From a virus (Duplodnaviria; Caudoviricetes), in IMG/VR virus record IMGVR_UViG_3300020045_013646, positions 1 to 42,225 of that record: a DNA stretch of 42,225 nt. One strand, written 5' to 3'. Of the stretch, positions 1,621 to 42,111 are shown piece by piece (the stretch's first letter is position 1; every line of letters begins with the position of its first letter). A program made the translations under genes and the position numbers. A model generated the notes under the pieces. The model was not told where the DNA came from, did no database searches, and was given only the letters and a program-made list of their open reading frames with translations.

Positions 1621-1650
1621 AAAAAAGAAAGAGGCTGTTACGCCTCTTTC
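1621..1650 (-). terminator. intrinsic terminator of cassette 1
   Basis: GAAAGAGGC-GTAACA-GCCTCTTTC followed by a T tract; ORF stop lies in the loop. Confidence 0.75.
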
Positions 1651-1943
1651 GGTGCCGCTTCTTCAGCGACTTTCTTCTTTTTTTCATCTTCTTTTATTTT
1701 ATTGATTTTACCTTTGATTGTCTTTCCAACATTCACTCCTCGATCAATGATATCTACGTATTCGTCGACAGCAACTTTTGCCAAGCCACCAATCATCAAC
1801 CAACTCACAACCTTATAACCCACTTTCAACGCTTTGTGTGTTACTTCGGGTGTTGCGTTTTTGACGATAGTGCTTGCAATTTGTTTTGCTCCTGCGCCTA
1901 CAATAAAACCACCAATCCATTTTGCTGCTGTTAATGCAAACAT
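1638..1943 (-). CDS. cassette 1 cargo, hypothetical 101 aa
   Basis: ORF directly downstream of the repeat motif and AGGAGG RBS. Confidence 0.8.
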   Translation of the reverse strand: MFALTAAKWIGGFIVGAGAKQIASTIVKNATPEVTHKALKVGYKVVSWLMIGGLAKVAVDEYVDIIDRGVNVGKTIKGKINKIKEDEKKKKVAEEAAPKEA

Positions 1944-1973
1944 CTTGATTTCCTCCTTATAATATAATAGTTT

Positions 1974-2001
1974 CTATTATAGGAGTTGTTTTCCAAGCGA
2001 G
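1974..2001 (-). promoter_or_regulatory. 28-bp cassette/promoter motif copy 1
   Basis: CTCGC-N14-CTATAATAG on the minus strand. Confidence 0.85.
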
Positions 2002-2064
2002 ACAAAAAGAAAAGGATACTAAATTTCTTTAATATCCTCTTCTTAGTGTCCTACTCATTTTGGA

Positions 2065-2247
2065 TTACACAATGACTTGTTCCACTGCTTCTTCAGTAGC
2101 ATCCATAGCCTGTTCAATCCCGGGGACTTCGCTCACTTTGCACTTGTATATTACTATACCAGCCAAAGTAACCACGATCATTCCACCGACGATTGTCACG
2201 ATTGCTTTTTTGTGCTTCTTGACGAATTCAACGATTTTCTTCAACAT
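2065..2247 (-). CDS. cassette 2 cargo, single-TM peptide
   Basis: 60 aa, KKHKK followed by a hydrophobic stretch; hairpin and T tract at ~2003-2044. Confidence 0.75.
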   Translation of the reverse strand: MLKKIVEFVKKHKKAIVTIVGGMIVVTLAGIVIYKCKVSEVPGIEQAMDATEEAVEQVIV

Positions 2248-2283
2248 TGTTTTGTTCTCCTTAATTTTAGTAGTGTTTCCACT

Positions 2284-2311
2284 CTATTATAGTAGTTGCA
2301 TTTTATGCGAG
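2284..2311 (-). promoter_or_regulatory. 28-bp motif copy 2
   Basis: CTCGCATAAAATGCAACTACTATAATAG. Confidence 0.85.
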
Positions 2312-5576: not shown

Positions 5577-6818
5577 TTATTCTGTCAATTCATCACGTCC
5601 GCACCGGGTACAGTAGAGCTTTCTTGTCTTATTAGAGGCCACAACTTCTGTCTCATGACCACATACAGGACAAAATTGCGGATATGTCTCTGTCCATGAT
5701 CTGGTTAGGTTCTCCTTGACCTCCGGGATAATCTTGTTAGCTTTGTAGATCTCGAGAGTATCTCCAATACCAATTTGCAGATCCTCAAAGCACTTCAGTG
5801 TATGGAGGTTAGCCTGTCTTACCGTAGTTCCTTCCAGTTCTGTCGGTTCAACAATGACCACCGGGGTAATTAATCCGGTTGGACTAACGCTCCACTTCAT
5901 TCCTGTAACTTTTGTGAGCTTGGAAATATCCGGCCATTTAAAGGCCATTGTATCTCTCGGATAACGAAGAGTTTTACCAAGAGATGCCCCATGATCAATA
6001 TTGTTCATCGTCAATACTAGCCCATCAACCGGATACTCATAGGTTGGGAGGTCGGAAGTAAATCGTTCAATCTCCTGTTGCAGAAAATAGTTGGCGACTT
6101 TAACATAAGGTACCACATCAAACCCGAGATCTTCCAAATATCGCAACTGCTCATCCTTAGTCTTCAGATTGCGTCCGTACCCGTTAATCATCATTACTGA
6201 GTGGGCAACAAACGTCAAACGGCCAATAATTACCGGTTTGGCACTATTACTGTTGATGAGTCCAGCGGCTAAGTTACGAGGATTACGATATCTTTCTCCT
6301 TCTGGGGTCTGTTTGAGCGCCTCGAAATCATCAATTCCCATGCATCCTTCGCCTCGAACGATCAGATCATTTTGGAGACTAATAGTCTGTGGAACAGCAC
6401 TCATTAGAAGAACATTCTCTGTAATATCTCGTCCGTACACACCATCTCCACGACTAACAGCATGGTTCAGCATTCCCTCTCGATAATAAAGAACAATTGA
6501 GACACCATCAAGTTTCCAGGAAAGGAGGCCTTCCTCTTCGCCCAAGAAATATAACAAGTCAGCAACATTCTTCGTATCTTTGAGTGACAAAATAGGGAAT
6601 GGGTGCTTTATTTTATCCCCACTTTCTTCAAAACCAATCCTGTTCGTTGGTGAATTTTCAAGATGATATCCAGCAGCCTCTTCCAAATTTCTCAGTTCTT
6701 CCAAATATAAATCATATTGCTTATCTGTGAGAGATGACTCAGTACTGCCACTATAATAAGCTTTAGCAGCATCATTCAGGAATGAGACGAGTTTCTGCAT
6801 TCTTTCATCAATTGTCAT
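5577..6818 (-). CDS. ligA: NAD+-dependent DNA ligase, C-terminally short
   Basis: Domain Ia (YY...LTDKQYD), motif I KLDG, SRGDG, VRGE, RNLAAG, DGLV, OB fold, CPVC..CTRC Zn finger. Confidence 0.9.
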   Translation of the reverse strand: MTIDERMQKLVSFLNDAAKAYYSGSTESSLTDKQYDLYLEELRNLEEAAGYHLENSPTNRIGFEESGDKIKHPFPILSLKDTKNVADLLYFLGEEEGLLSWKLDGVSIVLYYREGMLNHAVSRGDGVYGRDITENVLLMSAVPQTISLQNDLIVRGEGCMGIDDFEALKQTPEGERYRNPRNLAAGLINSNSAKPVIIGRLTFVAHSVMMINGYGRNLKTKDEQLRYLEDLGFDVVPYVKVANYFLQQEIERFTSDLPTYEYPVDGLVLTMNNIDHGASLGKTLRYPRDTMAFKWPDISKLTKVTGMKWSVSPTGLITPVVIVEPTELEGTTVRQANLHTLKCFEDLQIGIGDTLEIYKANKIIPEVKENLTRSWTETYPQFCPVCGHETEVVASNKTRKLYCTRCGRDELTE

Positions 6819-6848
6819 ATGGCTTTCCTCCTTTCTTGAGGTGTTTGA

Positions 6849-6877
6849 AAAAGAGAAAAGAGCTTATTTAGCTCTTT
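6849..6877 (-). terminator. terminator of cassette 3
   Basis: AAAGAGC-TAAATAA-GCTCTTT followed by TCTCTTTT. Confidence 0.75.
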
Positions 6878-6957
6878 CCAGTTTTTGAATCGTTCTGTTT
6901 GATTTGGCAAAGTTTACAAGTTTCATAATTAGCCCACGGGCAATTATTACATGTCAT
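6868..6957 (-). CDS. cassette 3 cargo, 29-aa CxxC/CxxC micro-peptide
   Basis: MTCNNCPWANYETCKLCQIKQNDSKTGKS with AGGAGG RBS, between motif and terminator. Confidence 0.7.
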   Translation of the reverse strand: MTCNNCPWANYETCKLCQIKQNDSKTGKS

Positions 6958-6987
6958 TTTCTTTTCCTCCTTTTAATAGATATGATT

Positions 6988-7015
6988 CTATTATAGGAGT
7001 TGTTTTCGGCGCGAC
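6988..7015 (-). promoter_or_regulatory. 28-bp motif copy 3
   Basis: GTCGCGCCGAAAACAACTCCTATAATAG. Confidence 0.85.
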
Positions 7016-7121
7016 TTAATATCCTCTGATTACAATAAGTCCATACATAAGAAGAAATATAACAGCAACTAAACCAAGCATAATCCAGCAGAATCTCATT
7101 TCCTCAGGATCTAGACCAATC

Positions 7122-7340
7122 TCATTCTTTTTCGGTCTCTGGCTCAGGAGTTTCATCTTCTTTCTCCTTTTCTCTATTCTCTTGATTATCCTTCATGACG
7201 GTGCCAACAAATTCAATTTCTTTCTGAACAACAAACAACCCGCCCTTGATAAACCCAAAGAAATAAACCATTTTGGTGTAGGCATAAACGCCAGTCGCAA
7301 TACCGGCAATAGTCAGAGCCATTTTAACGTTCTTGTCCAT
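7122..7340 (-). CDS. small membrane protein
   Basis: 72 aa, hydrophobic N-terminus, acidic tail, AAGGAG RBS. Confidence 0.65.
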   Translation of the reverse strand: MDKNVKMALTIAGIATGVYAYTKMVYFFGFIKGGLFVVQKEIEFVGTVMKDNQENREKEKEDETPEPETEKE

Positions 7341-7785
7341 TTTGTATCTCCTTTAGTTCTCGAATACAGTCATCAATGTGCTCGCCAACAAGCTTTTTAA
7401 AAAAGTCTTCATCTCGTCCAAAAGCTAAGTCTTTTTGGGTAATAAGTCTCTGCCGAGCAATATTTAGAATTCGATCCCGAACAAAAATGGTATAAATTCC
7501 AGTAGAAGGATCAAGTGTCACCTCAATGTGATACCGTCCGAGATTTTCTTCTTTTTCTAATAAAGGTGCTGAAATTTCCATCGGCGGTCTCCTTTTAGCA
7601 TTACCTCTTCCAAAGTAGTAGAAGTGGGCAAAAGCGTCCATTTGATCATCATGATTTACTTTTCGAGTTTGATGATACTCCCGCAATTTGGACAGGATCT
7701 CGCGTTGCCATGAATCCATCCGCAGATTTGGCACCTTGGAGTTTTGTATGACCTTATCAACAAAAGCTTCAAATTTTTCATCCAT
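7324..7785 (-). CDS. hypothetical protein
   Basis: 153 aa ORF with AAAGGAG RBS. Confidence 0.65.
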   Translation of the reverse strand: MDEKFEAFVDKVIQNSKVPNLRMDSWQREILSKLREYHQTRKVNHDDQMDAFAHFYYFGRGNAKRRPPMEISAPLLEKEENLGRYHIEVTLDPSTGIYTIFVRDRILNIARQRLITQKDLAFGRDEDFFKKLVGEHIDDCIRELKEIQNGQER

Positions 7786-7796
7786 TTATGTCTCCT

Positions 7797-8084
7797 TTAC
7801 CATGTTTGATAGGGTTTACGAGGATAAACTGCAAAATATGCCTCATCGATTGCATCCTTTGCTTCTCGAAGACCTAATCCAGAAACTTCACGATACATTT
7901 TAATTGCAGCAATTCGATCATTTCCACATTTTTCAACGATCGTTTCAGGAGTCGGATATGATAAGAAGATGTCAGCTATCTCTTGAAAAGACATTGGCTC
8001 TCTTCTCGAGAAATCCTGATTTTGATGACCGCAATTATGACAGAACTTACCAATCAGGGTCGTTGTGCAATTCATACATTTCAT
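7797..8084 (-). CDS. Zn ribbon plus ribosomal L7/L12 C-terminal-like domain protein
   Basis: CMNC..CHNC followed by RIAAIKMYREVSGLGLREAKDAID. Confidence 0.7.
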   Translation of the reverse strand: MKCMNCTTTLIGKFCHNCGHQNQDFSRREPMSFQEIADIFLSYPTPETIVEKCGNDRIAAIKMYREVSGLGLREAKDAIDEAYFAVYPRKPYQTW

Positions 8085-8087
8085 ATT

Positions 8088-8315
8088 TTATCTCTCCTTC
8101 GCTAATCTTAAATCATCGATCGGAATCCAACGTTCGGTTACTCCTGGGCCATACTTTCGAGAATCAAAGTAATCACGATAATTTATAAGTTGAACCCGTA
8201 CTGGCAAGTATGCATTGGTCTCAGAAGACTCAATAACAGTACACATTTTACCATAATCAGAGCCCTTTTCGACTAGAATTACTCGGTCTCCAACTTTAAA
8301 ACCTACGTCAAACAT
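8088..8315 (-). CDS. hypothetical KOW/SH3-like protein
   Basis: FKVGDRVIL...; start MFDVG after AGGAGAAATCACC. Confidence 0.6.
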   Translation of the reverse strand: MFDVGFKVGDRVILVEKGSDYGKMCTVIESSETNAYLPVRVQLINYRDYFDSRKYGPGVTERWIPIDDLRLAKER

Positions 8316-8358
8316 GGTGATTTCTCCTATCATTTTGGTGGTGAATTAGTTCTCTCTT

Positions 8359-8583
8359 TCAGTCAATGGTTTTTAATGGGCACCAGTCTGGTTTTAAATA
8401 AAGACTATTTTGACTAGCAAAATCAAGTTGACCAAAGTATGGATCTTCTTTTGGTCGATTTGGATGAGTACAATAACAAGAGCCATCATTATCATCCTCA
8501 TAGAAGAATGGGCAAGTTTCTCCATATTTTGAACATACTGTAATTGGTTCGTCCATCGTAAAGATATAAGTTTGCTTAGCCAT
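8359..8583 (-). CDS. Cys-rich hypothetical protein
   Basis: Start MAKQ after AGGAGG; CPF..C..PDWCPL. Confidence 0.65.
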   Translation of the reverse strand: MAKQTYIFTMDEPITVCSKYGETCPFFYEDDNDGSCYCTHPNRPKEDPYFGQLDFASQNSLYLKPDWCPLKTID

Positions 8584-8773
8584 TTTGGGCCTCCTTAGCT
8601 TTCCGATTCTTACGCATCTCAAAACCCATCCATACCATAACTCCAGCTCCAACAAGTAACATACCCCCGCCAATAATCAAATATGGCTTAGCTAGTTCCT
8701 TGGCCAGAATCAAAGGATTATCCTGAATTAGAGTTTGTAGCCCTTCATCACTTGTTACCCAACTATCTTCCAT
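8576..8773 (-). CDS. small membrane protein
   Basis: Start MEDS; one TM segment. Confidence 0.6.
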   Translation of the reverse strand: MEDSWVTSDEGLQTLIQDNPLILAKELAKPYLIIGGGMLLVGAGVMVWMGFEMRKNRKAKEAQNG

Positions 8774-8963
8774 TTTGATTCCTCTCTTCCGCTTTAATAC
8801 CTCTACATAATATAGCGGCATCATCAAATGCTTGTTTCGGTGTGTCAAAAGCTACTGATTTGATATTCCAATAGAACTTACCATTACGGGCATAGATGCT
8901 AACTGTCTGTCCTGAGATCACGTCCGAACGAGTCTTAAATATGACTTTTTTGCCATCTGACAT
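8763..8963 (-). CDS. hypothetical protein
   Basis: 66 aa, GGAGG RBS. Confidence 0.6.
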   Translation of the reverse strand: MSDGKKVIFKTRSDVISGQTVSIYARNGKFYWNIKSVAFDTPKQAFDDAAILCRGIKAEERNQNGR

Positions 8964-8967
8964 GCTG

Positions 8968-9306
8968 TCAACCTCCAGGATATAATGTTTTGGCTAATTT
9001 GATCAGTCCAATCCTCTCTTCATTAGAGGAATTTCTATAAGCCTTCCTGCTCAGAAAATCCAAAGCTTTTGCCGAGAGTAAAGAATCGTCCTCAGAGGTT
9101 GGTTCTTCTTTTTCTTTTTTATTGGACATATCAACAATAATAACCTTCTTATCCATGATCTCTGTCAAACTCATACTGGTTGTAACAGGATAAAGGACTA
9201 TACAATTTTTATTGCCTTGACGTTCTGGATTAAAGAACCAAATATCCAACATTTTATTTCCTTGAATAATCATTGTCATCAGATCTTGGCTGGTGATTAT
9301 TTTCAT
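8968..9306 (-). CDS. hypothetical protein
   Basis: Start MKIIT after GAAAGGAGAAATCAC. Confidence 0.65.
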   Translation of the reverse strand: MKIITSQDLMTMIIQGNKMLDIWFFNPERQGNKNCIVLYPVTTSMSLTEIMDKKVIIVDMSNKKEKEEPTSEDDSLLSAKALDFLSRKAYRNSSNEERIGLIKLAKTLYPGG

Positions 9307-9332
9307 AGTGATTTCTCCTTTCAAAAATAATA

Positions 9333-9410
9333 GAGAATGACCCGCGGATTCGAACCGCTTTCTTTCGTAGTTACGAACGTTTTACGTTTTTAAACTAGCC
9401 TATCACTCTC
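9333..9410 (-). ncRNA. tRNA-like RNA with non-canonical anticodon arm
   Basis: T arm GCGG-TTCGAAT-CCGC, D arm GTTT..AAAC after TA, stem TTCGT-AACT-ACGAA, closing stem GAGAGTGA/TCATTCTC. Confidence 0.65.
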
Positions 9411-9437
9411 TATTATAGTGACTGTTTTTGATGCGAT
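9410..9437 (-). promoter_or_regulatory. 28-bp motif copy 4 (heads the tRNA-like RNA)
   Basis: ATCGCATCAAAAACAGTCACTATAATAG. Confidence 0.85.
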
Positions 9438-9874
9438 TAGACTTGGGGATGAAAGTCAACGGGTGTTTGTTGAGCCATATACATTGCTTTTTTCAATTCG
9501 GGATCATCAAGTTTACAGCCACCAATTAAACTTATATTATCAATGGTCATGCTTTCTTTGATGGCATGCTTCTTCATATCATCAACAATCACCGCGGTAA
9601 GAAGAAGAAGATAATTCATGTGATCTGTTATTTTCTCTTCCCACATTGACATTGGGTAATCTTTATCTGACATACACATATCATATACCGATACCGTATG
9701 CTTAGCCATCATACCAGCAAGTGCCTGTCTGGCTGAGACGCCCTCAAGAGCTGCTGCTATCTTGAAGTTATGCAACCTATCACCAGTTGCATACTCCTTT
9801 GCCTTCTGAATTAGCACATCCTTACTTCTCTGAATCTGCATTTCAATAACTTTATTAAATTCGTCAACCTTCAT
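9437..9874 (-). CDS. all-alpha nucleotide-modification-associated / MazG-like protein
   Basis: KAKEYA..DRLHNF..MAKH..EKITDHMNYLLLL pattern. Confidence 0.55.
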   Translation of the reverse strand: MKVDEFNKVIEMQIQRSKDVLIQKAKEYATGDRLHNFKIAAALEGVSARQALAGMMAKHTVSVYDMCMSDKDYPMSMWEEKITDHMNYLLLLTAVIVDDMKKHAIKESMTIDNISLIGGCKLDDPELKKAMYMAQQTPVDFHPQV

Positions 9875-9963
9875 TTACTTGTCTCCTTCTTCTGACAATC
9901 ACATACTTCGTTCGGATCCAAATTGGCACCACACTTAGGACACGTTTTGTAATACTTTGACAT
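9871..9963 (-). CDS. 30-aa Zn-finger peptide (not in ORF track)
   Basis: MSKYYKTCPKCGANLDPNEVCDCQKKETSK, AAGGAG RBS, ATGA overlap with the next gene. Confidence 0.7.
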   Translation of the reverse strand: MSKYYKTCPKCGANLDPNEVCDCQKKETSK

Positions 9964-10007
9964 TGTGATTCTCCTTTTGTTTTTCCAAATTTTAACCCCG
10001 GGGATTT

Positions 10008-10232
10008 TTACAGAACAGGTTTAACTAGTCCTTCAACAATCTTGACACTATGTTCTGTCACACGTTCGATATAGCCTTTGTTTAGGAGCTCAGACAGCAT
10101 GAGGCCAATACCATTGAATTCTTTTCTAGGAACAATCTTGTATTTATTAGCGAGATAGTAAACTACCCCAGTAATAAGGGCCGCTTTGATTAGTGTCTTC
10201 TGGTTCTTCTTGATGGTTTCCTCGATAGTCAT
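10008..10232 (-). CDS. hypothetical protein
   Basis: Start MTIEE. Confidence 0.6.
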   Translation of the reverse strand: MTIEETIKKNQKTLIKAALITGVVYYLANKYKIVPRKEFNGIGLMLSELLNKGYIERVTEHSVKIVEGLVKPVL

Positions 10233-10246
10233 AATAGTTTCCCCTT

Positions 10247-10435
10247 TCATTTATTCACGGGCCACTCGGCTCCGCAAGTCCTACAGTGACGACTCTCATT
10301 TTGACCATATGGATGACCGTAAGTGGTACCTCCACAATGGGTACAATTTGAATTCATCAGACAACATCTAACCTCAGAATGTGTACAAATATCCTCTTTG
10401 AACTCACAAGTTGAACATTCCTTTGTTGGTGGCAT
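10247..10435 (-). CDS. Cys-rich Zn-finger protein
   Basis: CSTC, CTHC, CRTC; GAAAGGAG RBS. Confidence 0.6.
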   Translation of the reverse strand: MPPTKECSTCEFKEDICTHSEVRCCLMNSNCTHCGGTTYGHPYGQNESRHCRTCGAEWPVNK

Positions 10436-10501
10436 AATTTCTCCTTTCAAAAATAAAAGAATAAGAACTGTTAATTCTTATTCCTTTTTTCAACTAATGT
10501 T

Positions 10502-10642
10502 TCATTCCATAAATTTCATGATTTTCTCCATTATTTTTTTGCCGAACTTCACCATCACGAATAAGTATATCAGCGTAATCCCTACGCTTGCTATAATCAT
10601 TCCGATAGCTATTGCTAATGCAAACCAAATAAATTCAAACAT
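10502..10642 (-). CDS. cassette 5 cargo, 46-aa TM peptide
   Basis: MFEFIWFALAIAIGMIIASVGITLIYLFVMVKFGKKIMEKIMKFME; AGGAGG RBS. Confidence 0.75.
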   Translation of the reverse strand: MFEFIWFALAIAIGMIIASVGITLIYLFVMVKFGKKIMEKIMKFME

Positions 10643-10716
10643 TTCTTTTTCCTCCTATAATTTGTTTATTAGTTTCTATTATAGGCGTTGTATTTTATGC
10701 GAGCAAAAGGGAGAGA

Positions 10717-10962
10717 CTAAGGTTTTTCCTTAATCTCTACCATGATCCCACTTCCTACTAGTCTTTCGACATCCCAGATCAGTTTCGATTTCTGCGTCTT
10801 TTTGACGTGAACGGTATAACTTACGGTTTGATCCTCGACGTTCATGTGCAGGCCAATAACTGAATATTTAGCTGCCCATTTCTCGGCAAGGGCGTCAACC
10901 GCCCAGTGTTTACCAATTTTCACGGTCAACTCGACTGTTTCAATTTTACTAAATCCGAACAT
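10717..10962 (-). CDS. cassette 6 cargo, 81-aa soluble protein
   Basis: Start MFGFSK after AAGGAGG. Confidence 0.75.
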   Translation of the reverse strand: MFGFSKIETVELTVKIGKHWAVDALAEKWAAKYSVIGLHMNVEDQTVSYTVHVKKTQKSKLIWDVERLVGSGIMVEIKEKP

Positions 10963-11035
10963 GTTTTTGTCCTCCTTTAATATTTGGTTTCTATTATAGG
11001 AGGTGTTTTTGATGCGAGAGAAAAGAGAAAGGGGC

Positions 11036-11203
11036 TTATTTAGCCTCTTCCTCAAATGAATCATTAACCTTTCTTTCTTCTCTACTTACCTGTCCCGTGA
11101 ATGCTCTGATGATTCTGCTGATAATCCATATAGTGAACCGTATTGCTACGGGTACCACAAAGATTGCTCCCAGAACCCACCAAAAGATCTTCCATTTTGA
11201 CAT
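11036..11203 (-). CDS. cassette 7 cargo, 55-aa TM peptide
   Basis: MSKWKIFWWVLGAIFVVPVAIRFTIWII...; AAGGAGG RBS; stop in the terminator loop. Confidence 0.75.
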   Translation of the reverse strand: MSKWKIFWWVLGAIFVVPVAIRFTIWIISRIIRAFTGQVSREERKVNDSFEEEAK

Positions 11204-11281
11204 GATAATTCCTCCTTTTAATAGATATGATTCTATTATAGGGAGTGTATAACATGCGAGAGAAAAAGGGAAGGCGTGCTG

Positions 11282-11581
11282 TTAAACACGCCATTTGAGT
11301 AGCTGACTCCAAGCTTTTGTTGTAATGACATTGAGCTCTTCATGCTTCAGAATTAATATCGTTTGACCGAGTGCTGCAAGCACCAATACTACTGTATCTG
11401 GACTCACTCTGGCTTTTGGATTTTCTTTCTCCTTAGCCTTATATAGTGTTTCCAGATACTGTGATAGTATCTGTGATTTGCCGCTCTCATCCAACGGATC
11501 TAATTTTGACATCTGTTCAAGCGTTCTTGCGATTTCCGCCTCCAACTTGTTGTCCTTCTTCTTAAATAGTTTCTTAAACAT
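11282..11581 (-). CDS. cassette 8 cargo, 99 aa
   Basis: GAAAGGAG RBS; VSPDT..ILKHEELNVITTKA. Confidence 0.8.
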   Translation of the reverse strand: MFKKLFKKKDNKLEAEIARTLEQMSKLDPLDESGKSQILSQYLETLYKAKEKENPKARVSPDTVVLVLAALGQTILILKHEELNVITTKAWSQLLKWRV

Positions 11582-11685
11582 ATTTACCTTCTCCTTTCAG
11601 ATTTTTACTTCTATTATAGAGGTGGTTTATCATGCGAGCAAAAAGTAGAAGTTATATCTTTTAAATATAACTTCCGTTTAGAAAC

Positions 11686-11796
11686 TTATGATAACATTAA
11701 CCAACCGATCAATACAATCCAAAATACATAATATACTATTGCTATCCCTACAAATACTTTTATAATAGTCATCAATACCTTTTTAATACTGTCCAT
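11686..11796 (-). CDS. cassette 9 cargo, 36-aa TM peptide
   Basis: MDSIKKVLMTIIKVFVGIAIVYYVFWIVLIGWLMLS; AAGGAGG RBS. Confidence 0.7.
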   Translation of the reverse strand: MDSIKKVLMTIIKVFVGIAIVYYVFWIVLIGWLMLS

Positions 11797-11896
11797 CTTT
11801 TCCTCCTTATAACATAAGTTTCTATTATAGGAGTTGTTTATATCGCGAGCAAAAAGCAGAAGCTATATCTTTTAAATATAACTTCCTCTTTTAGAA

Positions 11897-12145
11897 TTAT
11901 CTTACGAATTCATGTTGTCTTGTCATCACACAAATTGTTCTGTACTCAGATGCTAATGAACTTTCCTCACCAAGATCATTCTCCAGCACGGTCGTGTAAA
12001 TCGCTAAATCTTTTGCCATCTGCGATAATTTTTCAATTTCCGCAAGTGCTTTATCTTTTTGATTTAACCTTACAAGTGCCTTTGCCTGTCTTGTGGTTTG
12101 TTCAATTAGTTTAACCTGATTTTCATTGAAATCTTGTTCTAACAT
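11897..12145 (-). CDS. cassette 10 cargo, 82-aa helical protein
   Basis: AGGAGG RBS, ORF track. Confidence 0.75.
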   Translation of the reverse strand: MLEQDFNENQVKLIEQTTRQAKALVRLNQKDKALAEIEKLSQMAKDLAIYTTVLENDLGEESSLASEYRTICVMTRQHEFVR

Positions 12146-12217
12146 AATTTATTCCTCCTATAATAATAGTTTCTATTATAGGCGTTGTTTTTATAGCGAA
12201 TAAAAAAGAGAAGAGAA

Positions 12218-12358
12218 TTATCCATTCTCTTCAATTTTTGAAGCTTTCCTTGTAATCAAGTTGACAATAATTTTTGCAACCACATTCATGATGTACTCGG
12301 CAACGATCATTAGGGTTAATACCCCTACGATAGTCACTGTTAACATTGTCTGTAACAT
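12218..12358 (-). CDS. cassette 11 cargo, 46-aa TM peptide
   Basis: MLQTMLTVTIVGVLTLMIVAEYIMNVVAKIIVNLITRKASKIEENG. Confidence 0.7.
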   Translation of the reverse strand: MLQTMLTVTIVGVLTLMIVAEYIMNVVAKIIVNLITRKASKIEENG

Positions 12359-12435
12359 AATTTTATCCTCCTATAATTTAATATAGCTTCTATTATAGGA
12401 GTTGTTTTTCCTGCGAGGTAAAGAGAAGAGGGGTG

Positions 12436-12702
12436 TTAACCCTCTTCATATAGTTCTTCAATAATTTCTTCGGCCTCATGTATCTGTTCTTTCCAGTCCT
12501 CTTTGCGAAACATCATCATGATTATCCTGCCAACACCGACTAGAAAAGCGAATGGTACTATGAAAGCTGCTATAATACGACATACCCATAACGGTACCTT
12601 CTCATTAAAGCGCTCCTCATAGAGCATTTTCTTTGCTAGAACTTCTGTTAACATATAAATTCCGACGATTTCACTCCAGATTCTTTTTACGATTCTCAAC
12701 AT
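12436..12702 (-). CDS. cassette 12 cargo, 88-aa membrane protein
   Basis: AGGAGG RBS; hydrophobic segment IIAAFIVPFAFLVGVG. Confidence 0.75.
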   Translation of the reverse strand: MLRIVKRIWSEIVGIYMLTEVLAKKMLYEERFNEKVPLWVCRIIAAFIVPFAFLVGVGRIIMMMFRKEDWKEQIHEAEEIIEELYEEG

Positions 12703-12776
12703 ACTTTCTTCCTCCTATAATTTTATTAGTTCTATTATAGGGACTGTATAAAGTGCGAGAAAAAAGGAAAGGTGTG

Positions 12777-12899
12777 TTAAACCTTTCCCTTCTTAGAAAT
12801 AGAATTTGCAATTTCTTTAAGATCTCTCATGATTTCTTTCCTACCAATTATCACGATTACTACTGCTAATAGAACTTCGATCCAATATAAGTCTGTCAT
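12777..12899 (-). CDS. cassette 13 cargo, 40-aa TM peptide
   Basis: MTDLYWIEVLLAVVIVIIGRKEIMRDLKEIANSISKKGKV. Confidence 0.7.
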   Translation of the reverse strand: MTDLYWIEVLLAVVIVIIGRKEIMRDLKEIANSISKKGKV

Positions 12900-12964
12900 T
12901 TTCATGTCCTCCTATAATTTTTTAATTTTTATTTCTATTATAGGAGCTGTATTTGATGCGAGGG

Positions 12965-13003
12965 AAAAAGGAAGAGGCCGTGTTATCAGCACGATCTCCT
13001 CCC
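12965..13003 (-). terminator. terminator ending the late operon after the holin
   Basis: GGGAGGAGATCGTG-CTGATAA-CACGGCCTCTTCC-TTTTT. Confidence 0.7.
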
Positions 13004-13023
13004 ATTTTGATGCTTTTTGTAAA

Positions 13024-13365
13024 TTACAGTTTAGCGTTCGGATCAACTTTAAAGGTCACGGTGGTCTTACCCGCCAGATCCGTCAGTTCACCGTTCATAC
13101 TTAGTCTATAGATATCTTTGGCCGCACTCGTTGTATCAATCATCAATGTGCCGTCCGAACTAGCGTCAGACTTCTTATAAGCCGCGGTGCTGAGCCCCAG
13201 AAGTACACCCAAGAAGATGTCGATTGCTGAGATGGTACCTACGATTTCTTCTCCGTAGGGGAGTCCCCAAATCTTAGCCAGGGCAAAATATAATGTGCCA
13301 GATGCCGGAAGAAAGTATTGAGCAATCCATTTAAGCGTTGCATAACTTTTGTCAGATAATAGCAT
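13024..13365 (-). CDS. holin (Dp-1-like)
   Basis: LKWIAQYFLPASGTLYFALAKIWGLPYGEEIVGTISAIDIFLGVLLG. Confidence 0.85.
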   Translation of the reverse strand: MLLSDKSYATLKWIAQYFLPASGTLYFALAKIWGLPYGEEIVGTISAIDIFLGVLLGLSTAAYKKSDASSDGTLMIDTTSAAKDIYRLSMNGELTDLAGKTTVTFKVDPNAKL

Positions 13366-17500: not shown

Positions 17501-19876
17501 TTATAGCGGCAATCCGCCAACGTTTGTTATAGTAATTGTTGCTGCATATAAGCCAGCTGTCAAATATTCATCGCCATTTTGTCCGATCTTAAATGTAACA
17601 TCAAACACGTTTATGGTTGCCGTATTTATTCCAGCTGTAATATACTCGGGATCGTTCGGTTTAAACCATAGTGGATTGACAACTGGTATGAAGTCTTCGC
17701 TGAACGAAGAAACTGGGGAATTACCAACTCCAATTAACCCGTTAGTATAAAGAACGTTGATGTTCCCCTGTGGATGCTTCAGCCGTCCTGCATAACTTAG
17801 ATTAATTTGGACTTGATACTCAGATTCCTGTTCAACAATTGTATAGCCTAATGTCAGCAATTTTGGTGTCTTTATTACATCAATTGTTGATAGATATGCC
17901 TTAATATAAAGATTTTTACCAGAGGACAAAGCCTCTAATCCAGGTATTGCTCCTCCATTTGTTGCTATCTGAAAATCTGTTTCTTCAGGAACGGTGTCAA
18001 CAATTGCTACTTTGATAACTAATGTTGTATCAAGCGGCACCTCCTCCGTCCAATTTATCTCAGAGGATTCAGGATCGGCGATCATTGTTGGCAATACAAA
18101 AGCACCAAGTGTCGCTGTGCCTTCTGGCAAATAATCGGCACCATTTACCATCACCAGGGTTCCATCTGTTGTAAAAGTGTGAATAGTATAGATCCCATTT
18201 GTTGTTTTAGTACCACCAGTACATTCACCAAAGGCGGATGTTACATAACGAATAATGACAATACCAGAGCCACCATCACCGCCAATACCGACTCCACTGT
18301 TTGCACCAGCACCGCCACCGCCACCAGTATTTGGTGTTCCCGAGACGCCTGCCGTAGAGCCAAGATTTGCCGCTCCTCCCCCATGAGTTGCTGTGCCTTG
18401 GGTGCCGCTTCGCATGGACCCTCCTCCACCACCAGCATAGCCAATAGTCGATCCAGAAATATCATTATTAACACCAGCTCCACCAGCACCGCCATAACTT
18501 GTCGTACCATTTTGGCCAACGGAACCAGCACCACCGCCACCGCCACCCATATAAGGCGCTGAGGCAACCGCACTTCCACCAGCATATCCTTGACCAGCTG
18601 TTCCGCTTCCTGGTGTTAGTTGCCAACAAAAGCCACCACCACCAGAACCACCATTCTCTGGTGGAATTGGACTACCTCCTTCGGCACCACCGTGCCCACC
18701 ACCAATGGCTGTTAAATCATTAAATATGGAGTTTCCACCATTTTGTCCATGATAACTATTGGCACTTTTTGCTCCAGCACCACCATTTCCGATAGTAACT
18801 GGGTAACTTCCTGGGGCGATTGAATAGTTGTTATTTGAAAGTAATCCACCAGCACCACCGCCACCGCCTTCCCAGCCACCGCCGCCACCGCCGCCACCTG
18901 CAATAACTAATACTTGGAGTGTCGGCATAGCAACTAGTAAGTCATAGGCTGCCTGAATAGCAATTGTTTCTTGTGTAAGAACTTCGTTTGTATCTTCGGC
19001 AGTCAAAGTTAAATCACAAAGAGCAATAGCTATTTCATATGCTGCATAACTATTAACGGTATAAACACCGTTATTATTCAAGGGAAGAAGACCAATTATT
19101 GCACAATAAGCCGAATAATAAGGGTTTGCACTCGTTAGAATAAGTGTATCACTTGAGGTAAATGTATGGATTGTCTCTGAACCGACTACTGTTTTTGTGC
19201 CACCAGAACTATCATTACCAAACACTCCTGTTGCATAAGAAACAATGACAATACCAGAACCACCAGCACCACCAGATTGACTTGATCCTTTATTAGCGCC
19301 ATTACCACCGTTGCCAGTATTTGGCGTTCCAGCGACACCAGCGTTTATATTATTTGATGTGCCTTGACCATACCCACCTTCAGCATATGTAACTGCCGAA
19401 CCGGTTATATCATTTGAAATTCCAATTCCACGCGTACGTCCAGATCCAGCTCCACCAGCACCGCCTCCACCGCCACCAACAAAACTACCACCAGCTGGAT
19501 CGTTTTTTGTACCGCCAGAATAACCTTGACCAGAAATTCCAGTTCCTGCGGCACCACCAGCAGATCCAGACGCACCACCACCAGAACCACCGTTGGAAAT
19601 AGTTGTATTATTATCATCGGCGTCTCTACCAGCGCCACCACCATAAGTTACCAGTGTGTCAAAGGATGAATCAGTACCTTTTGCCCCTACACTTCCTTGA
19701 GCACCACCGGCACCACCAGAGCCAACTACTATTGGATAGCTACCTTCGAAAAGCGGATAAAGGGCATTATAAAGTAGACCACCAGCACCAGCACCACCGC
19801 CTCCTGTTACCGCATCACCAGAACTACCGCCACCGCCACCGCCACCAGCAACAATTAAATATTTCACGTTTGCCAT
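17501..19876 (-). CDS. glycine-rich tail fibre-like protein with duplicated Gly-rich domain
   Basis: Two YLxVAGGGGGG...GGSGIVI..Y...TIHTFT units. Confidence 0.75.
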   Translation of the reverse strand: MANVKYLIVAGGGGGGGSSGDAVTGGGGAGAGGLLYNALYPLFEGSYPIVVGSGGAGGAQGSVGAKGTDSSFDTLVTYGGGAGRDADDNNTTISNGGSGGGASGSAGGAAGTGISGQGYSGGTKNDPAGGSFVGGGGGGAGGAGSGRTRGIGISNDITGSAVTYAEGGYGQGTSNNINAGVAGTPNTGNGGNGANKGSSQSGGAGGSGIVIVSYATGVFGNDSSGGTKTVVGSETIHTFTSSDTLILTSANPYYSAYCAIIGLLPLNNNGVYTVNSYAAYEIAIALCDLTLTAEDTNEVLTQETIAIQAAYDLLVAMPTLQVLVIAGGGGGGGGWEGGGGGAGGLLSNNNYSIAPGSYPVTIGNGGAGAKSANSYHGQNGGNSIFNDLTAIGGGHGGAEGGSPIPPENGGSGGGGFCWQLTPGSGTAGQGYAGGSAVASAPYMGGGGGGAGSVGQNGTTSYGGAGGAGVNNDISGSTIGYAGGGGGSMRSGTQGTATHGGGAANLGSTAGVSGTPNTGGGGGAGANSGVGIGGDGGSGIVIIRYVTSAFGECTGGTKTTNGIYTIHTFTTDGTLVMVNGADYLPEGTATLGAFVLPTMIADPESSEINWTEEVPLDTTLVIKVAIVDTVPEETDFQIATNGGAIPGLEALSSGKNLYIKAYLSTIDVIKTPKLLTLGYTIVEQESEYQVQINLSYAGRLKHPQGNINVLYTNGLIGVGNSPVSSFSEDFIPVVNPLWFKPNDPEYITAGINTATINVFDVTFKIGQNGDEYLTAGLYAATITITNVGGLPL

Positions 19877-35187: not shown

Positions 35188-35625
35188 TTATTCTCCTTTA
35201 TTTTTTACAGTACCATATCTTATACGACCTTCAATTGCCACTGCTTGATTCAGCGATCCACCAAAGGGAAACAGTCCAACTTGATATAGAATAGCCTCCA
35301 CAGCTTTTTCTCCAGATGTAGCATTTCCCTTTTTTAATTCATTAATCATGCGATGCCTATCAATCATGAGTATCTTCTGAGCAATATTTGTTCCATCCTT
35401 GATTCTTTGCCCAATCTCTGCAACCTCTAATGTAGAGGGTAATCTTTTCTTTAGAACCTTAAGTTTTTCATTTTTTCTGGAAGCAGAACCAATTTTTCCT
35501 TTAGACTCTAATTTTTTTACTTTTTCTTCGAGTCTTGAAACTTGTCTGACTTTGCGTTGTCCCCATCTCATACCGGGAACACCAAAGTGATAAATTTCCA
35601 ATTCTTCCTGACTTATAAGCTTCAA
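35188..35625 (-). CDS. HxGxxGMxWG-motif phage protein
   Basis: YHFGVPGMRWG. Confidence 0.7.
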   Translation of the reverse strand: MKLISQEELEIYHFGVPGMRWGQRKVRQVSRLEEKVKKLESKGKIGSASRKNEKLKVLKKRLPSTLEVAEIGQRIKDGTNIAQKILMIDRHRMINELKKGNATSGEKAVEAILYQVGLFPFGGSLNQAVAIEGRIRYGTVKNKGE

Positions 35626-37397: not shown

Positions 37398-38012
37398 CTA
37401 GGTTACAGCCTTAGTTTTTGCGCTAAGTTCTCTAACCGTCAAAGCCAATCCGGCACCAGCAGCCGCAATAGTCATCATACTTCCAACAACTGTCAAGGTG
37501 TCCATCAGACGATTCTTACCAACATCAACGTCTTTAGTTGTCAGATTTCGATACTGTTGTTCCATATTAAGTCGACTCACAAGACCCTTAAGCTCCTCAT
37601 CAGTCAGCATTTTAGCTTCACGACGCTTCATGTTTGAGAGATATTCTTCTTTTTTCCGACCACGAAGTGCTGCAATATTAGCATATTCTTTAGCCGTCGT
37701 CGCACCAACTTCATAGGTTTTTTGTTTAATCTTGAGTTGCGGAATGGATGGATTTTTCCCTGAACCAAAGGGATATCGACCAGATCGACCCGGCATTCCA
37801 AAATGATACATCGAATCAACTGGTTTTTCAGTACTAATTCCCTCATAATTTGGGCTACCATATTGGGGGTATGGCCCTTCAGGATTTGGTTTACTTTTGA
37901 TTTGAATCTCACGAATAAGATTCTGGACTTCATTCTCAGCCCGAAGTCTCTGGAGCAAGGCACTGAGTTGTTCATCAGTAGCATACTTAATAGTAATAGA
38001 TTTATCGGTCAT
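37398..38012 (-). CDS. HxG-motif phage protein
   Basis: YHFGMPGRSGRYPFGSG, LTDEELK..RLNMEQQY. Confidence 0.7.
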   Translation of the reverse strand: MTDKSITIKYATDEQLSALLQRLRAENEVQNLIREIQIKSKPNPEGPYPQYGSPNYEGISTEKPVDSMYHFGMPGRSGRYPFGSGKNPSIPQLKIKQKTYEVGATTAKEYANIAALRGRKKEEYLSNMKRREAKMLTDEELKGLVSRLNMEQQYRNLTTKDVDVGKNRLMDTLTVVGSMMTIAAAGAGLALTVRELSAKTKAVT

Positions 38013-39963: not shown

Positions 39964-42111
39964 TTATTCCTCCTTTGTATAGACTCTTTGGTATATTGGA
40001 TTTAGTTCGCGTGTAAAGATATTGACTGAGGTTGGCTCAGTTGTTGATTCAGTCGGACCGAATATAACCGTGGACTCATAAATTGGTCGTAACTCATGAG
40101 TATACAAATGGATAGCATTTAACTCGACCGTGAACAAATATGGTTTGCAGAGTTCAACCCCTTCTGTCGGAACACCAACTGAGATGGAGAAGATACCTGT
40201 AACGGCAATAATTCCAAAAGCCTTTTTGAATCCGGATAGGTTAACAGCACTTGTGTGGACAATCTCAATCGATGTACTAATTTGTTTTTGACCGATAACT
40301 GTGACATCTGATAAGGTGGCCAGATCAAAAGATCCTTCTTTATCAATCGGTACTTGTTCGCCAGCTATAACGTTGATATTGAATTGTGCATCCGTTGCAA
40401 TGTTAGAACTTGCATTCTTTAGACCGAGAACATTGATGGCCGATTCGGATGACAACTCAATAATTTCATTTGTTGCTTTTTGACCGGTAACGCTGACATT
40501 AGTTTCAGCAACAACTTGAATAACAGCACCTTTATCACGATCACCAATCACTGTGATCTCGGAGATTGAAGTAATTGATATTGGTGAGCTAACATTCTTT
40601 CGACCATTAACAAGAACGGCCTCAATTGCAGAGCTTGTGATGTCGGATGTGATCTTCTTTAATCCATTAGTATTGATGGTTATCGGATGAGCAATAGTAA
40701 TAGCATTGCTTGAGTCTTTAAAGCCAGTAGTTAAAACCTCAGTCAAACTGGAGATAACTACCACAGAACTATTTTGCTTTGATCCGATAGCTGTTATGAC
40801 TGGTTCGGCTGAAGTAAGGATACTGGAACTTGAAGATTTCTTACCAACAATATTGATGTCTGTGATGGCCGAGGATCCAATTGTTGCACTTGTTTGCTTC
40901 GATCCCAAAACACTCGTGCTGGATAGAGACTCAACATTGATAAGTTGAGTTATTGATTTTGTTCCATCAGTTGTAACCGTGGATGGATTTGAGATCTCAA
41001 CAGAACTAATCGCCGTCTTCTTTCCAGAGGTGACCACCTCGGAAGATGCCGACGTAGTCGGAGAATCGCGGGCTGATTTTAAACCAGTTGTGTCAATGGA
41101 AATTATTGCGCTGGTTGATACCGTACCAGATTTGTTATAGTTGTCTTTAGCTCCTGAGACGTCGACCGTTAAGGAGGAAGACACATCAAGTATGCCAATT
41201 CCATTTTTCTTACCAGCTGAGGTGATATCAGAAGTTGAAGATGTGGATATTAAACTCTGTCCATTCTTATTGCTCGAGAGAACTACATCAGAAATTGCTG
41301 AGACGGCTATAGCAGAGGCTACCTGTTTGTTAGCAACAGTTACAGTTACACTAGAAATTGCTGATGTAGATATTTCCGTTAGACCGTTCTTTTTACCAGC
41401 TACTGTGACGGCTGATACTGCTGAGGTAGAATTGCTTCCTGACCGATTAGTCTTGCCAGCTACTGTTACGGCTGATACAGATGAAGTGGAGTTACTACCA
41501 GTTCGGTTAGTCTTGCCAGAAACAGTTAGGGCTGATACGGATGAAGTAGAAGTTGAGCCTGAGGTTTTCTTTGTTCCTTCAACCGTGACGGCCGATGCCG
41601 CTGTAACCGCAATTGATCCGGTATAATTTTCAACTGGAGCCGTATAGTCCACAACCACTTTGATGTAGTCAACGGACCAGGTGATGGCGGTATTACTAGA
41701 ACTTCGAAAACCAGTCAGACGAACTTTAAAGCCACCAGCCTGTGTGTTATCATTCAGTTCGGATTCTGTCCACGTGCCACAAAGATTGGTGTTGACTTCA
41801 ACTTCTGCTAACGACATACCGTTTGCGCTTTGCGTGCCACGCAACGTTGTATCAAGAATTGCTTGAAAACGTAGTTGAGCACCAGTAGAAGTGGTTACGC
41901 TTGATTTATATCTAACATACATCGTCACCGAATTGATTGTAGATCCAGCTGGAATGCCAAAAGCAAAATTATAATAGTCTGTAACAATTGAGGAGTTCTT
42001 TGCCGGAGCGGCAGTTGCAAAGGAGGTATCGTCGACATGTGCATTGTTTGGATTGGTCCAACCAGTGGTTATAAGCGCATTACTTAAAGGATACTTGGTT
42101 ACAGTTGCCAT
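39964..42111 (-). CDS. Ser/Thr-rich repeat fibre protein (~20-aa period)
   Basis: Repeats such as TSSVSAVTVAGKTNRSGSNS; N-terminal globular domain ending VDYIKVVVDY. Confidence 0.75.
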   Translation of the reverse strand: MATVTKYPLSNALITTGWTNPNNAHVDDTSFATAAPAKNSSIVTDYYNFAFGIPAGSTINSVTMYVRYKSSVTTSTGAQLRFQAILDTTLRGTQSANGMSLAEVEVNTNLCGTWTESELNDNTQAGGFKVRLTGFRSSSNTAITWSVDYIKVVVDYTAPVENYTGSIAVTAASAVTVEGTKKTSGSTSTSSVSALTVSGKTNRTGSNSTSSVSAVTVAGKTNRSGSNSTSAVSAVTVAGKKNGLTEISTSAISSVTVTVANKQVASAIAVSAISDVVLSSNKNGQSLISTSSTSDITSAGKKNGIGILDVSSSLTVDVSGAKDNYNKSGTVSTSAIISIDTTGLKSARDSPTTSASSEVVTSGKKTAISSVEISNPSTVTTDGTKSITQLINVESLSSTSVLGSKQTSATIGSSAITDINIVGKKSSSSSILTSAEPVITAIGSKQNSSVVVISSLTEVLTTGFKDSSNAITIAHPITINTNGLKKITSDITSSAIEAVLVNGRKNVSSPISITSISEITVIGDRDKGAVIQVVAETNVSVTGQKATNEIIELSSESAINVLGLKNASSNIATDAQFNINVIAGEQVPIDKEGSFDLATLSDVTVIGQKQISTSIEIVHTSAVNLSGFKKAFGIIAVTGIFSISVGVPTEGVELCKPYLFTVELNAIHLYTHELRPIYESTVIFGPTESTTEPTSVNIFTRELNPIYQRVYTKEE

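Follow-up and report, generated by a model that had tools for sequence, protein, structure and literature searches.

The window analyzed here, meaning the whole 42,225-bp virus record IMGVR_UViG_3300020045_013646, is a linear, 71%-complete phage sequence with its genes on the minus strand. Between its holin gene and its gene for an NAD-dependent DNA ligase lie two small cassettes, each consisting of a promoter-like motif, a leader with a ribosome-binding site (RBS), a short open reading frame (ORF), and a terminator; the one next to the ligase is called cassette A and the other cassette B. Their promoter-like motifs are 2 of 13 copies in the window of TCGC-N15-TATAATAG (TCGC-N15-TATAAT-RR), all of which are on the sense strand and none of which lie in structural genes; a short ORF with a strong RBS follows 12 of the copies, and a tRNA-like fold follows the remaining one. 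The features of the pair and its borders are as follows.

5577..6818, minus strand: NAD-dependent DNA ligase, the fixed landmark that closes the variable region
Between the holin (13024-13365) and the ligase (5577-6818): variable region containing the pair
6838..6848, minus strand: 11-nt promoter-spacer remnant behind hairpin A, with TCGC and TATAAT missing
6847..6879, minus strand: terminator hairpin A, 10-bp stem, 5-nt loop, U tract
6868..6957, minus strand: 29-aa ORF with two CxxC motifs, stop codon inside the terminator loop
6964..6997, minus strand: 34-bp tract, copy A
6988..7014, minus strand: promoter-like motif A, lacking a hairpin immediately upstream; belongs to the final cassette ahead of the ligase
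10991..11017, minus strand: next promoter-like motif, hexamer at 10998, spacer resembling the remnant at 6838-6848
11018..11053, minus strand: terminator hairpin B, with U tract
11036..11203, minus strand: 55-aa hydrophobic ORF, likely a single-pass membrane peptide, its last codons forming the 5' arm of the terminator
11209..11242, minus strand: 34-bp tract, copy B
11233..11259, minus strand: promoter-like motif B

Shared and unshared parts of the two cassettes

The first-pass annotation of this DNA had reported a 32-bp leader present without change at 6966-6997 and 11211-11242; exact identity in fact covers 34 bp (6964-6997 and 11209-11242), beginning 2 nt before TATAAT and stopping just past the AGGAGG ribosome site. 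No exact repeat in the window is longer, the next being 23 bp. Leaders in the window are variable, as an exact match of at least 25 bp was detected in only 1 of 66 cassette pairs, and a crude model of column frequencies, derived from the cassettes of the window, gave a chance probability of 7e-10 per pair, or 5e-8 over the 66 pairs. A search of viral contigs for the exact leader returned 0 matches. The near-identity does not extend through the whole frame as had been claimed, since the promoter spacers of A and B are alike in only 6 of 15 bases.

The terminators do match, with identity at 26 of 31 positions without gaps or 26 of 29 with gaps (p=0.0005). Both are predicted to fold as a hairpin followed by a U tract (z -4.2 for A and -2.3 for B), with the same loop, and their differences include two compensatory pairs and one mismatch. 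Behind hairpin A, the remnant at 6838-6848 is closest, among the 13 promoter spacers, to that of the promoter with its hexamer at 10998 (score 18; all others ≤14), which is the promoter that follows cassette B.

The ORFs are as originally described, namely a 29-aa peptide with two CxxC motifs and a 55-aa hydrophobic peptide, both encoded on the minus strand, and their cores are unrelated at both the DNA and the protein level. Whole-ORF comparison gave p=0.49 for DNA and p=0.14 for protein, global identity was 0.39 against a baseline of 0.37, and the longest word common to both cores is 5 nt. In the last codons, just before the hairpin, a 9-mer is alike at eight of nine positions (null fraction 0.019). 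Nucleotide homology across the ORFs, which the first-pass annotation had named as the mark of simple duplication and divergence, is thus marginal at the 3' end and absent from the body.

Using TBLASTN, we identified no match to the 29-aa peptide in 50,697 phage records or in 306 loci, although the query is too short for this result to make more than a weak case for an orphan. Exact look-up in a protein collection was also negative, the peptide belongs to no PHROG or Pfam family, and a degenerate codon pattern gave two matches that we judged to be chance; neither a donor nor a homolog of the ORF was found by these searches, which are weak for so short a query. The 55-aa peptide has two homologs at 67-68% identity (homologs were found as P0002-P0004 only). 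The locus of these homologs was not found in viral or genome contigs, and Atlas matches to the peptide that score below 0.8 are uninformative.

History of the pair

The middle of the ORF appears to have been replaced rather than to have drifted, because simulated remnants at the identity of the flanks never score so low and because true orthologs keep their similarity. In a simulation of 2000 deletion remnants, the observed score of 11 was reached by none at 84% identity, by 0.1% at 70%, and by 1.9% at 60%. In 12 true orthologous cassettes with leaders at 0.81-1.0 identity, the ORFs are 0.68-0.94 identical, compared with 0.39 for A and B. The cargo replacement proposed in the first-pass annotation is therefore supported; new gene capture, which it named as the alternative, is not supported in that form.

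Cassettes are also gained, lost, or swapped at the promoter, RBS, and terminator in relatives, including two IMG/VR phages (L001 and L002) whose ligases are 59% identical to that of the window. Between L001 and L002 there is a 500-bp insertion with the motif at both ends, a homology block that resumes 2 nt before the hexamer, a swap of three cassettes for one before the ligase that ends at a common terminator, and one extra ORF with just one end in a frame part. Between the Rhodococcus phages ReqiPepy6 and ReqiPoco6 (Pepy6 and Poco6 below), cargo is replaced immediately 3' of a retained RBS, three cassettes are present in one phage only, and an orthologous gene is followed by different terminators. 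Reading the two alignments by eye, we counted four gene-content differences in each, and both ends fell in a promoter, RBS, or terminator in seven of these eight. Gordonia phage pairs, for which only BLAST blocks were compared, have several blocks that begin at -19 to -25 and many that do not.

We defined sharing of both flanks as at least 20 exact leader bases together with a terminator score of at least 35. Based on this definition, both flanks are shared by 1 of 66 cassette pairs in the window, 3 of 55 in Pepy6, and 1 of 36 in Poco6, and by none in L001, L002, Perkunas, or AddiRose; among the three Pepy6 pairs, one has clearly unrelated cargo and two have some similarity. Across 161 IMG/VR loci, 2 of 115 pairs share both flanks. 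The pairs in Poco6 and in these two IMG/VR loci likewise enclose unrelated cargo. The pattern of the pair thus recurs and needs no special machinery, and treating A and B as a special case is not supported.

We assign a probability of roughly 0.55 to an account in which the whole cassette was duplicated by recombination at the repeated promoter motifs, and the ORF was later replaced by exchange at the ribosome site and the terminator. Four collinear segments support the duplication: the leader (34/34), the last codons (8/9), the terminator (26/31), and the spacer remnant resembling that of promoter 10998. The crossover would have occurred at the TATAAT hexamer, because identity starts 2 nt before it while the spacers differ, and the copied block would have comprised the leader, ORF, terminator, and next spacer. 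In this sequence of events, the 29-aa ORF would be the newcomer and a membrane peptide the old cargo, since in a relative the pre-ligase slot is occupied by a membrane peptide behind a related leader. In the 306 fetched loci, nothing matches cassette A better than the cassette before the ligase in L002 (78% over 54 nt, E 1.6e-5), which carries a 78-aa peptide whose family is weakly like the 55-aa family (HHalign E 7e-4, probability 26%); this hints at the membrane peptide as the older cargo and the 29-aa ORF as the newer. The recombinase may be the lineage's single-strand annealing protein, acting on homologies of 10-40 bp. Such proteins join short, imperfect homologies, and a complete relative (G001) encodes a homolog (51%) of the protein annotated as a single-strand annealing protein in Poco6.

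Several observations weigh against duplication followed by replacement. Similarity of leaders and similarity of terminators are uncorrelated over the 66 cassette pairs of the window (rho -0.02), and with terminators that change under orthologous genes this leaves the reusable frame of the first-pass annotation without support as a fixed unit. The spacer of promoter 10998 is near the family consensus. The 55-aa and 78-aa peptides show no significant similarity when compared as single sequences, and profile scores are inflated by hydrophobic helices. A gene for the annealing protein is absent from the 71%-complete window. In both L001 and L002 a terminator likewise stands before the ligase, accompanied in L001 by a decayed promoter. 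Leader and terminator have diverged unequally (0/34 vs 5/31, p=0.02; p=0.15 for unconstrained bases); this gap is weak evidence for different ages, because the 3' end is less conserved than the leader in 10 of 12 true orthologs. The 2 of 115 IMG/VR pairs that share both flanks compare with 1.0 expected under independence, so separate events can yield the same pattern, and blocks that end at a conserved motif do not prove a crossover inside it. Finally, we found no close relative of the window phage (the nearest ligase is 59% identical, and a neighboring 153-aa ORF used as a query identified none), so no ancestral state is seen directly.

The strongest competitor, which we consider possible and clearly less probable, involves no duplication of a whole cassette. 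In that scenario, the leader was acquired by recent, short gene conversion from hexamer to RBS, the terminators belong to an older genome-wide family and were acquired separately, and the seemingly common frame is the sum of independent part swaps. The 34-bp tract is bounded exactly by two motifs found in every cassette, the terminators have two compensatory pair changes where the leader has none, and the parts are uncorrelated in the window. Elsewhere, locus L197 has a 39-bp common leader with unrelated terminators, one terminator family stands behind several unrelated ORFs in L001 and L002, and the Pepy6/Poco6 ortholog with different terminators also fits. However, the same two cassettes rank first of 66 pairs for the leader and are one of only three pairs with a terminator score of at least 35, and separate borrowing must also yield, in the right order, the likeness of the last codons and the remnant of the spacer. 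Both scenarios use the same short-homology recombination.

A more speculative proposal, which we regard as doubtful, is that the frame serves as a gene-birth platform, in which a phage-polymerase promoter, a strong RBS, and a terminator that supplies a stop codon capture short DNA by microhomology. Captured DNA would then be expressed at once as a peptide or a self-closing RNA, and the 29-aa CxxC ORF would be a newborn gene made of ~60 foreign bases and the old last codons in a new frame. Two side observations concern terminators and ORF ends. Among IMG/VR loci L143-L303, there are 23 pairs with unrelated cargo and a common terminator, and the common block begins inside both ORFs in 7 of them, so terminators often supply the stop codon. 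In L001, the last ORF before the ligase (9776-9943) continues across the terminator in a different frame and may have arisen from a gene like L002 8375-8611 via deletion at a short repeat in common with the hairpin arm (HHalign E 0.005, a weak match).

Simple duplication and divergence, with the 29-aa ORF as a decayed or deleted copy of the 55-aa ORF, is very unlikely. It would explain the likeness of the last codons and the fact that both ORFs end in the same hairpin, albeit in different frames, but it conflicts with the 5-nt longest core word, the scores of the simulated remnants, and the ORF identity that orthologs with similar leaders retain. Still less probable is an origin by chance, by convergence under shared selection, or through an assembly artefact. 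In actinophage relatives leaders are nearly constant and matches of 24-34 bp are common (14 of 55 Pepy6 pairs reach at least 25 bp), and the assembly was taken as it stands in the record; against this stand the variable leaders of the window, with the chance estimate given above, and the fact that both flanks run on into intact, sensible ORFs. The least probable account is an integron-like capture, in which a dedicated, site-specific recombinase would insert foreign ORFs between a leader and a terminator that stay fixed: several insertions in relatives stop exactly at TCGCA, but breakpoints vary, falling in TCGC, the hexamer, the RBS, or the terminator, every unit carries a promoter motif of its own, and none of 3 records, among them the complete G001 and the window, contains a tyrosine integrase (PF00589; control positive in 14 of 14 genomes; serine recombinases were outside this search).

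The promoter motif and its candidate polymerase

Apart from cassette A, the cassettes headed by the motif in the window are the following; cassette B is part of the array.

10494..12961, minus strand: nine-cassette array after the holin, with promoter, RBS, ORF, and terminator units back to back; hexamers at 12942, 12739, 12397, 12180, 11829, 11618, 11240, 10998, and 10683
1638..2310, minus strand: another pair of cassettes headed by the motif (hexamers at 2291 and 1981)
9332..9436, minus strand: cassette without an ORF, the same promoter motif followed by a tRNA-like fold

Within the array, the adjacent cassettes at 11609-11689 and 11820-11900 have the best terminator match in the window (score 71, compared with 41 for A and B; 23 bp exact), with unrelated cargo (82 aa and 36 aa) and different leaders. 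The sixth gene of the array, preceded by five cassettes, encodes a 99-aa phrog_5818 protein (11282-11581, minus strand); in L001, L002, Poco6, and others, similar genes of 93-113 aa come first in the array, directly following the holin region.

The motif is probably not a sigma70 promoter. Of 95 copies, 93 have a spacing of 15 from TCGC to the hexamer; a -35 consensus is missing, and a C seven bases before the hexamer is invariant even though it lies outside the search pattern. A sigma70 scan called none of the 11 copies in 6700-13100. The hexamer is TTTA(A/G)T in 14 of 372 unique copies, which lack the A at the second position of TATAAT; sigma70 requires that A in the -10 hexamer. With these features and the RNA stems at the end of the hexamer described below, we rejected the sigma70 reading.

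The cassettes without ORFs point to where transcription may start. The tRNA-like fold at 9332-9411 (minus strand) is 80 nt long with a T-loop, and its 10-bp closing stem runs from the first base after TATAAT; neither ARAGORN nor Rfam called it. Using a heuristic split between coding and non-coding cassettes, we found a closing helix of at least 7 bp from +1 or +2, followed by a U tract, in 38 of 76 cassettes without an ORF, as compared with 1.2 expected from shuffles that kept the first 12 bases and with 11 of 296 coding cassettes. Of 57 best helices, 46 begin within the range from -3 to +3, and 7 begin no earlier than +6. RNA stems at +1 or +2 could alternatively arise by read-through plus processing. 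A start right at the end of TATAAT would indicate the phage's own RNA polymerase, as sigma70 would not start there; in this model the promoter would be read by the lineage's own single-chain RNA polymerase, with the end of the hexamer as the start. G001 encodes the RdRP-like polymerase of the lineage, with a DxDGD motif and 54% identity to that of Poco6. Against this model, a gene for the polymerase is absent from the window, which is 71% complete. The lineage polymerase may nonetheless be the reader of the motif.

When the window and 13 relatives were scanned, 12 of these 14 sequences had the strict pattern, with 93 copies in total, none antisense, and ≤0.04 per shuffle; these sequences comprise IMG/VR phages and phages of Rhodococcus, Gordonia, Curtobacterium, and Streptomyces. 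The phages Eevee and 1706 were negative by the strict pattern, and each has the motif with a variant hexamer, TATAGT or TTTAAT. A collection scan of viral contigs with one motif variant gave an estimate of about 1200 stored stretches.

Lineage and comparison with known systems

The large terminase subunit (TerL) of the window phage is 77-78% identical to those of Streptomyces BI phages and of Rhodococcus phages ReqiPoco6 and ReqiPepy6. PHROG and Pfam searches of the window identified a protease-capsid fusion, tail proteins, a holin, DUF6353, and the NAD ligase. Based on TerL, portal, protease-capsid, and HNH genes in a common head module, we assign the phage to the lineage that includes Streptomyces BI, Rhodococcus CC, Gordonia DJ, and Lactococcus 1706 phages. 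Koert et al. (10.1101/842583) described an actinobacteriophage supercluster of AM, AU, AW, BI, CC, DJ, and EL with Lactococcus 1706 and FP_oengus, and the available text of that paper gives a putative RdRP/YonO-like RNA polymerase as a lineage signature. We place the window phage in that lineage because of its TerL identity and its PHROG/Pfam gene set; TerL, the protease-capsid fusion, and the DUF6353 gene are common to the window and the supercluster as described there. In the main text of that paper, the words promoter, terminator, cassette, and intergenic are absent. The label Ca. Heliusvirales was dropped: the available part of PMC11283538 does not mention BI/CC relatives or oengus.

Other features of the window lie mostly outside the pair. 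The ligase (413 aa) has adenylation, OB, and zinc-ribbon domains only based on Pfam, without HhH or BRCT, and relatives align over equal length. A 95-aa ORF at 7797-8084 (minus strand) combines a zinc ribbon with a ribosomal protein L7/L12 C-terminal domain (Pfam E 7e-8). The sequence TCAAAATGG has eight copies on the coding strand and none on the opposite strand (36539, 30377, 28238, 21941, 15195, 13010, 11200, and 8778, minus strand), one of them overlapping the first codons of the 55-aa ORF; in G001, the count by strand is seven vs one. Two head-region proteins (37398-38012 and 35188-35625, minus strand) have a YHFG-x-x-G segment, a glycine-rich 791-aa protein with an internal duplication is encoded in the tail region (17501-19876), and three 60-nt tandem repeats (41393-41572) lie inside a 715-aa Ser/Thr-rich ORF.

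A similar motif has been published for one part of this lineage. In Gordonia cluster DJ phages Vardy and Conley, a 43- to 50-bp intergenic motif with TATAAT occurs in five copies, and in the available text it is interpreted as a sigma70 -10 element and tied to gene expression only (PMC9671010, PMC10868162). Like the window motif, it lies, as far as those texts describe it, among central small genes that often encode membrane proteins, with terminators nearby. We found the strict pattern in the same region of the DJ phages Duffington, Rickmore, and Perkunas (5, 5, and 7 copies), and its cluster and position suggest that it is identical with the published DJ logo. The DJ leader is nearly constant, whereas window leaders are variable and AT-rich. 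Shuffling, other host phyla, and a phage polymerase are not mentioned in the available parts of the DJ reports (PMC9671010, PMC10868162). More generally, a literature search of incomplete coverage found no published account of cassette shuffling or of a polymerase promoter in this lineage.

Integron cassettes are tandem single-gene units with variable cargo, and the units described here resemble them in this respect. They are not integrons: an IntI-type integrase was not found, the junctions are not fixed to one site, and each unit has its own promoter motif and terminator rather than being a promoterless attC cassette, a comparison made with no attC-model search.

The closer parallel is with the promoter-early stem-loop (PeSL) cassettes of the T4-like phages RB49 and phi1 (Arbiol et al. 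2010, PMC2839356). According to the available text of that study, crossovers were mapped between the -10 box and the Shine-Dalgarno sequence or ATG and also in the stem-loop, the promoters match the Escherichia coli sigma70 consensus and were shown to be active, and mini-circles were detected. As far as PeSL units are described there, both systems have repeated intergenic units of promoter and hairpin before small orphan genes in a hypervariable region, and strain-specific genes bordered by the units; in the relatives studied here, seven of the eight gene-content differences, read by eye, are so bordered. Unlike those PeSL promoters, with their sigma70 -35 and -10 elements, the window motif has a fixed TCGC-N15 and an apparent start right at the hexamer. 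The phages also differ, as this siphophage lineage is known here from sequence alone and its cargo includes structured RNAs. Cassette shuffling in the lineage therefore seems to work like the PeSL type, but we do not class the units as PeSLs because they lack the sigma70 elements.

A widespread phage lineage infecting several bacterial phyla can apparently renew its small accessory genes without an integrase, and it seems that exchange at repeated signals moves leader, cargo, and terminator individually. Because T4-type PeSLs already illustrate the principle and the motif has been published for one cluster, the pair is a clear example of such exchange and no surprise. The testable gain is the promoter, where structured-RNA cargo would place the start at the end of TATAAT, unlike sigma70, which would make the motif a direct substrate for an RNA polymerase family that the available sources know from sequence only. 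Cultured members of the lineage make both the recombination and the promoter claims easily testable.

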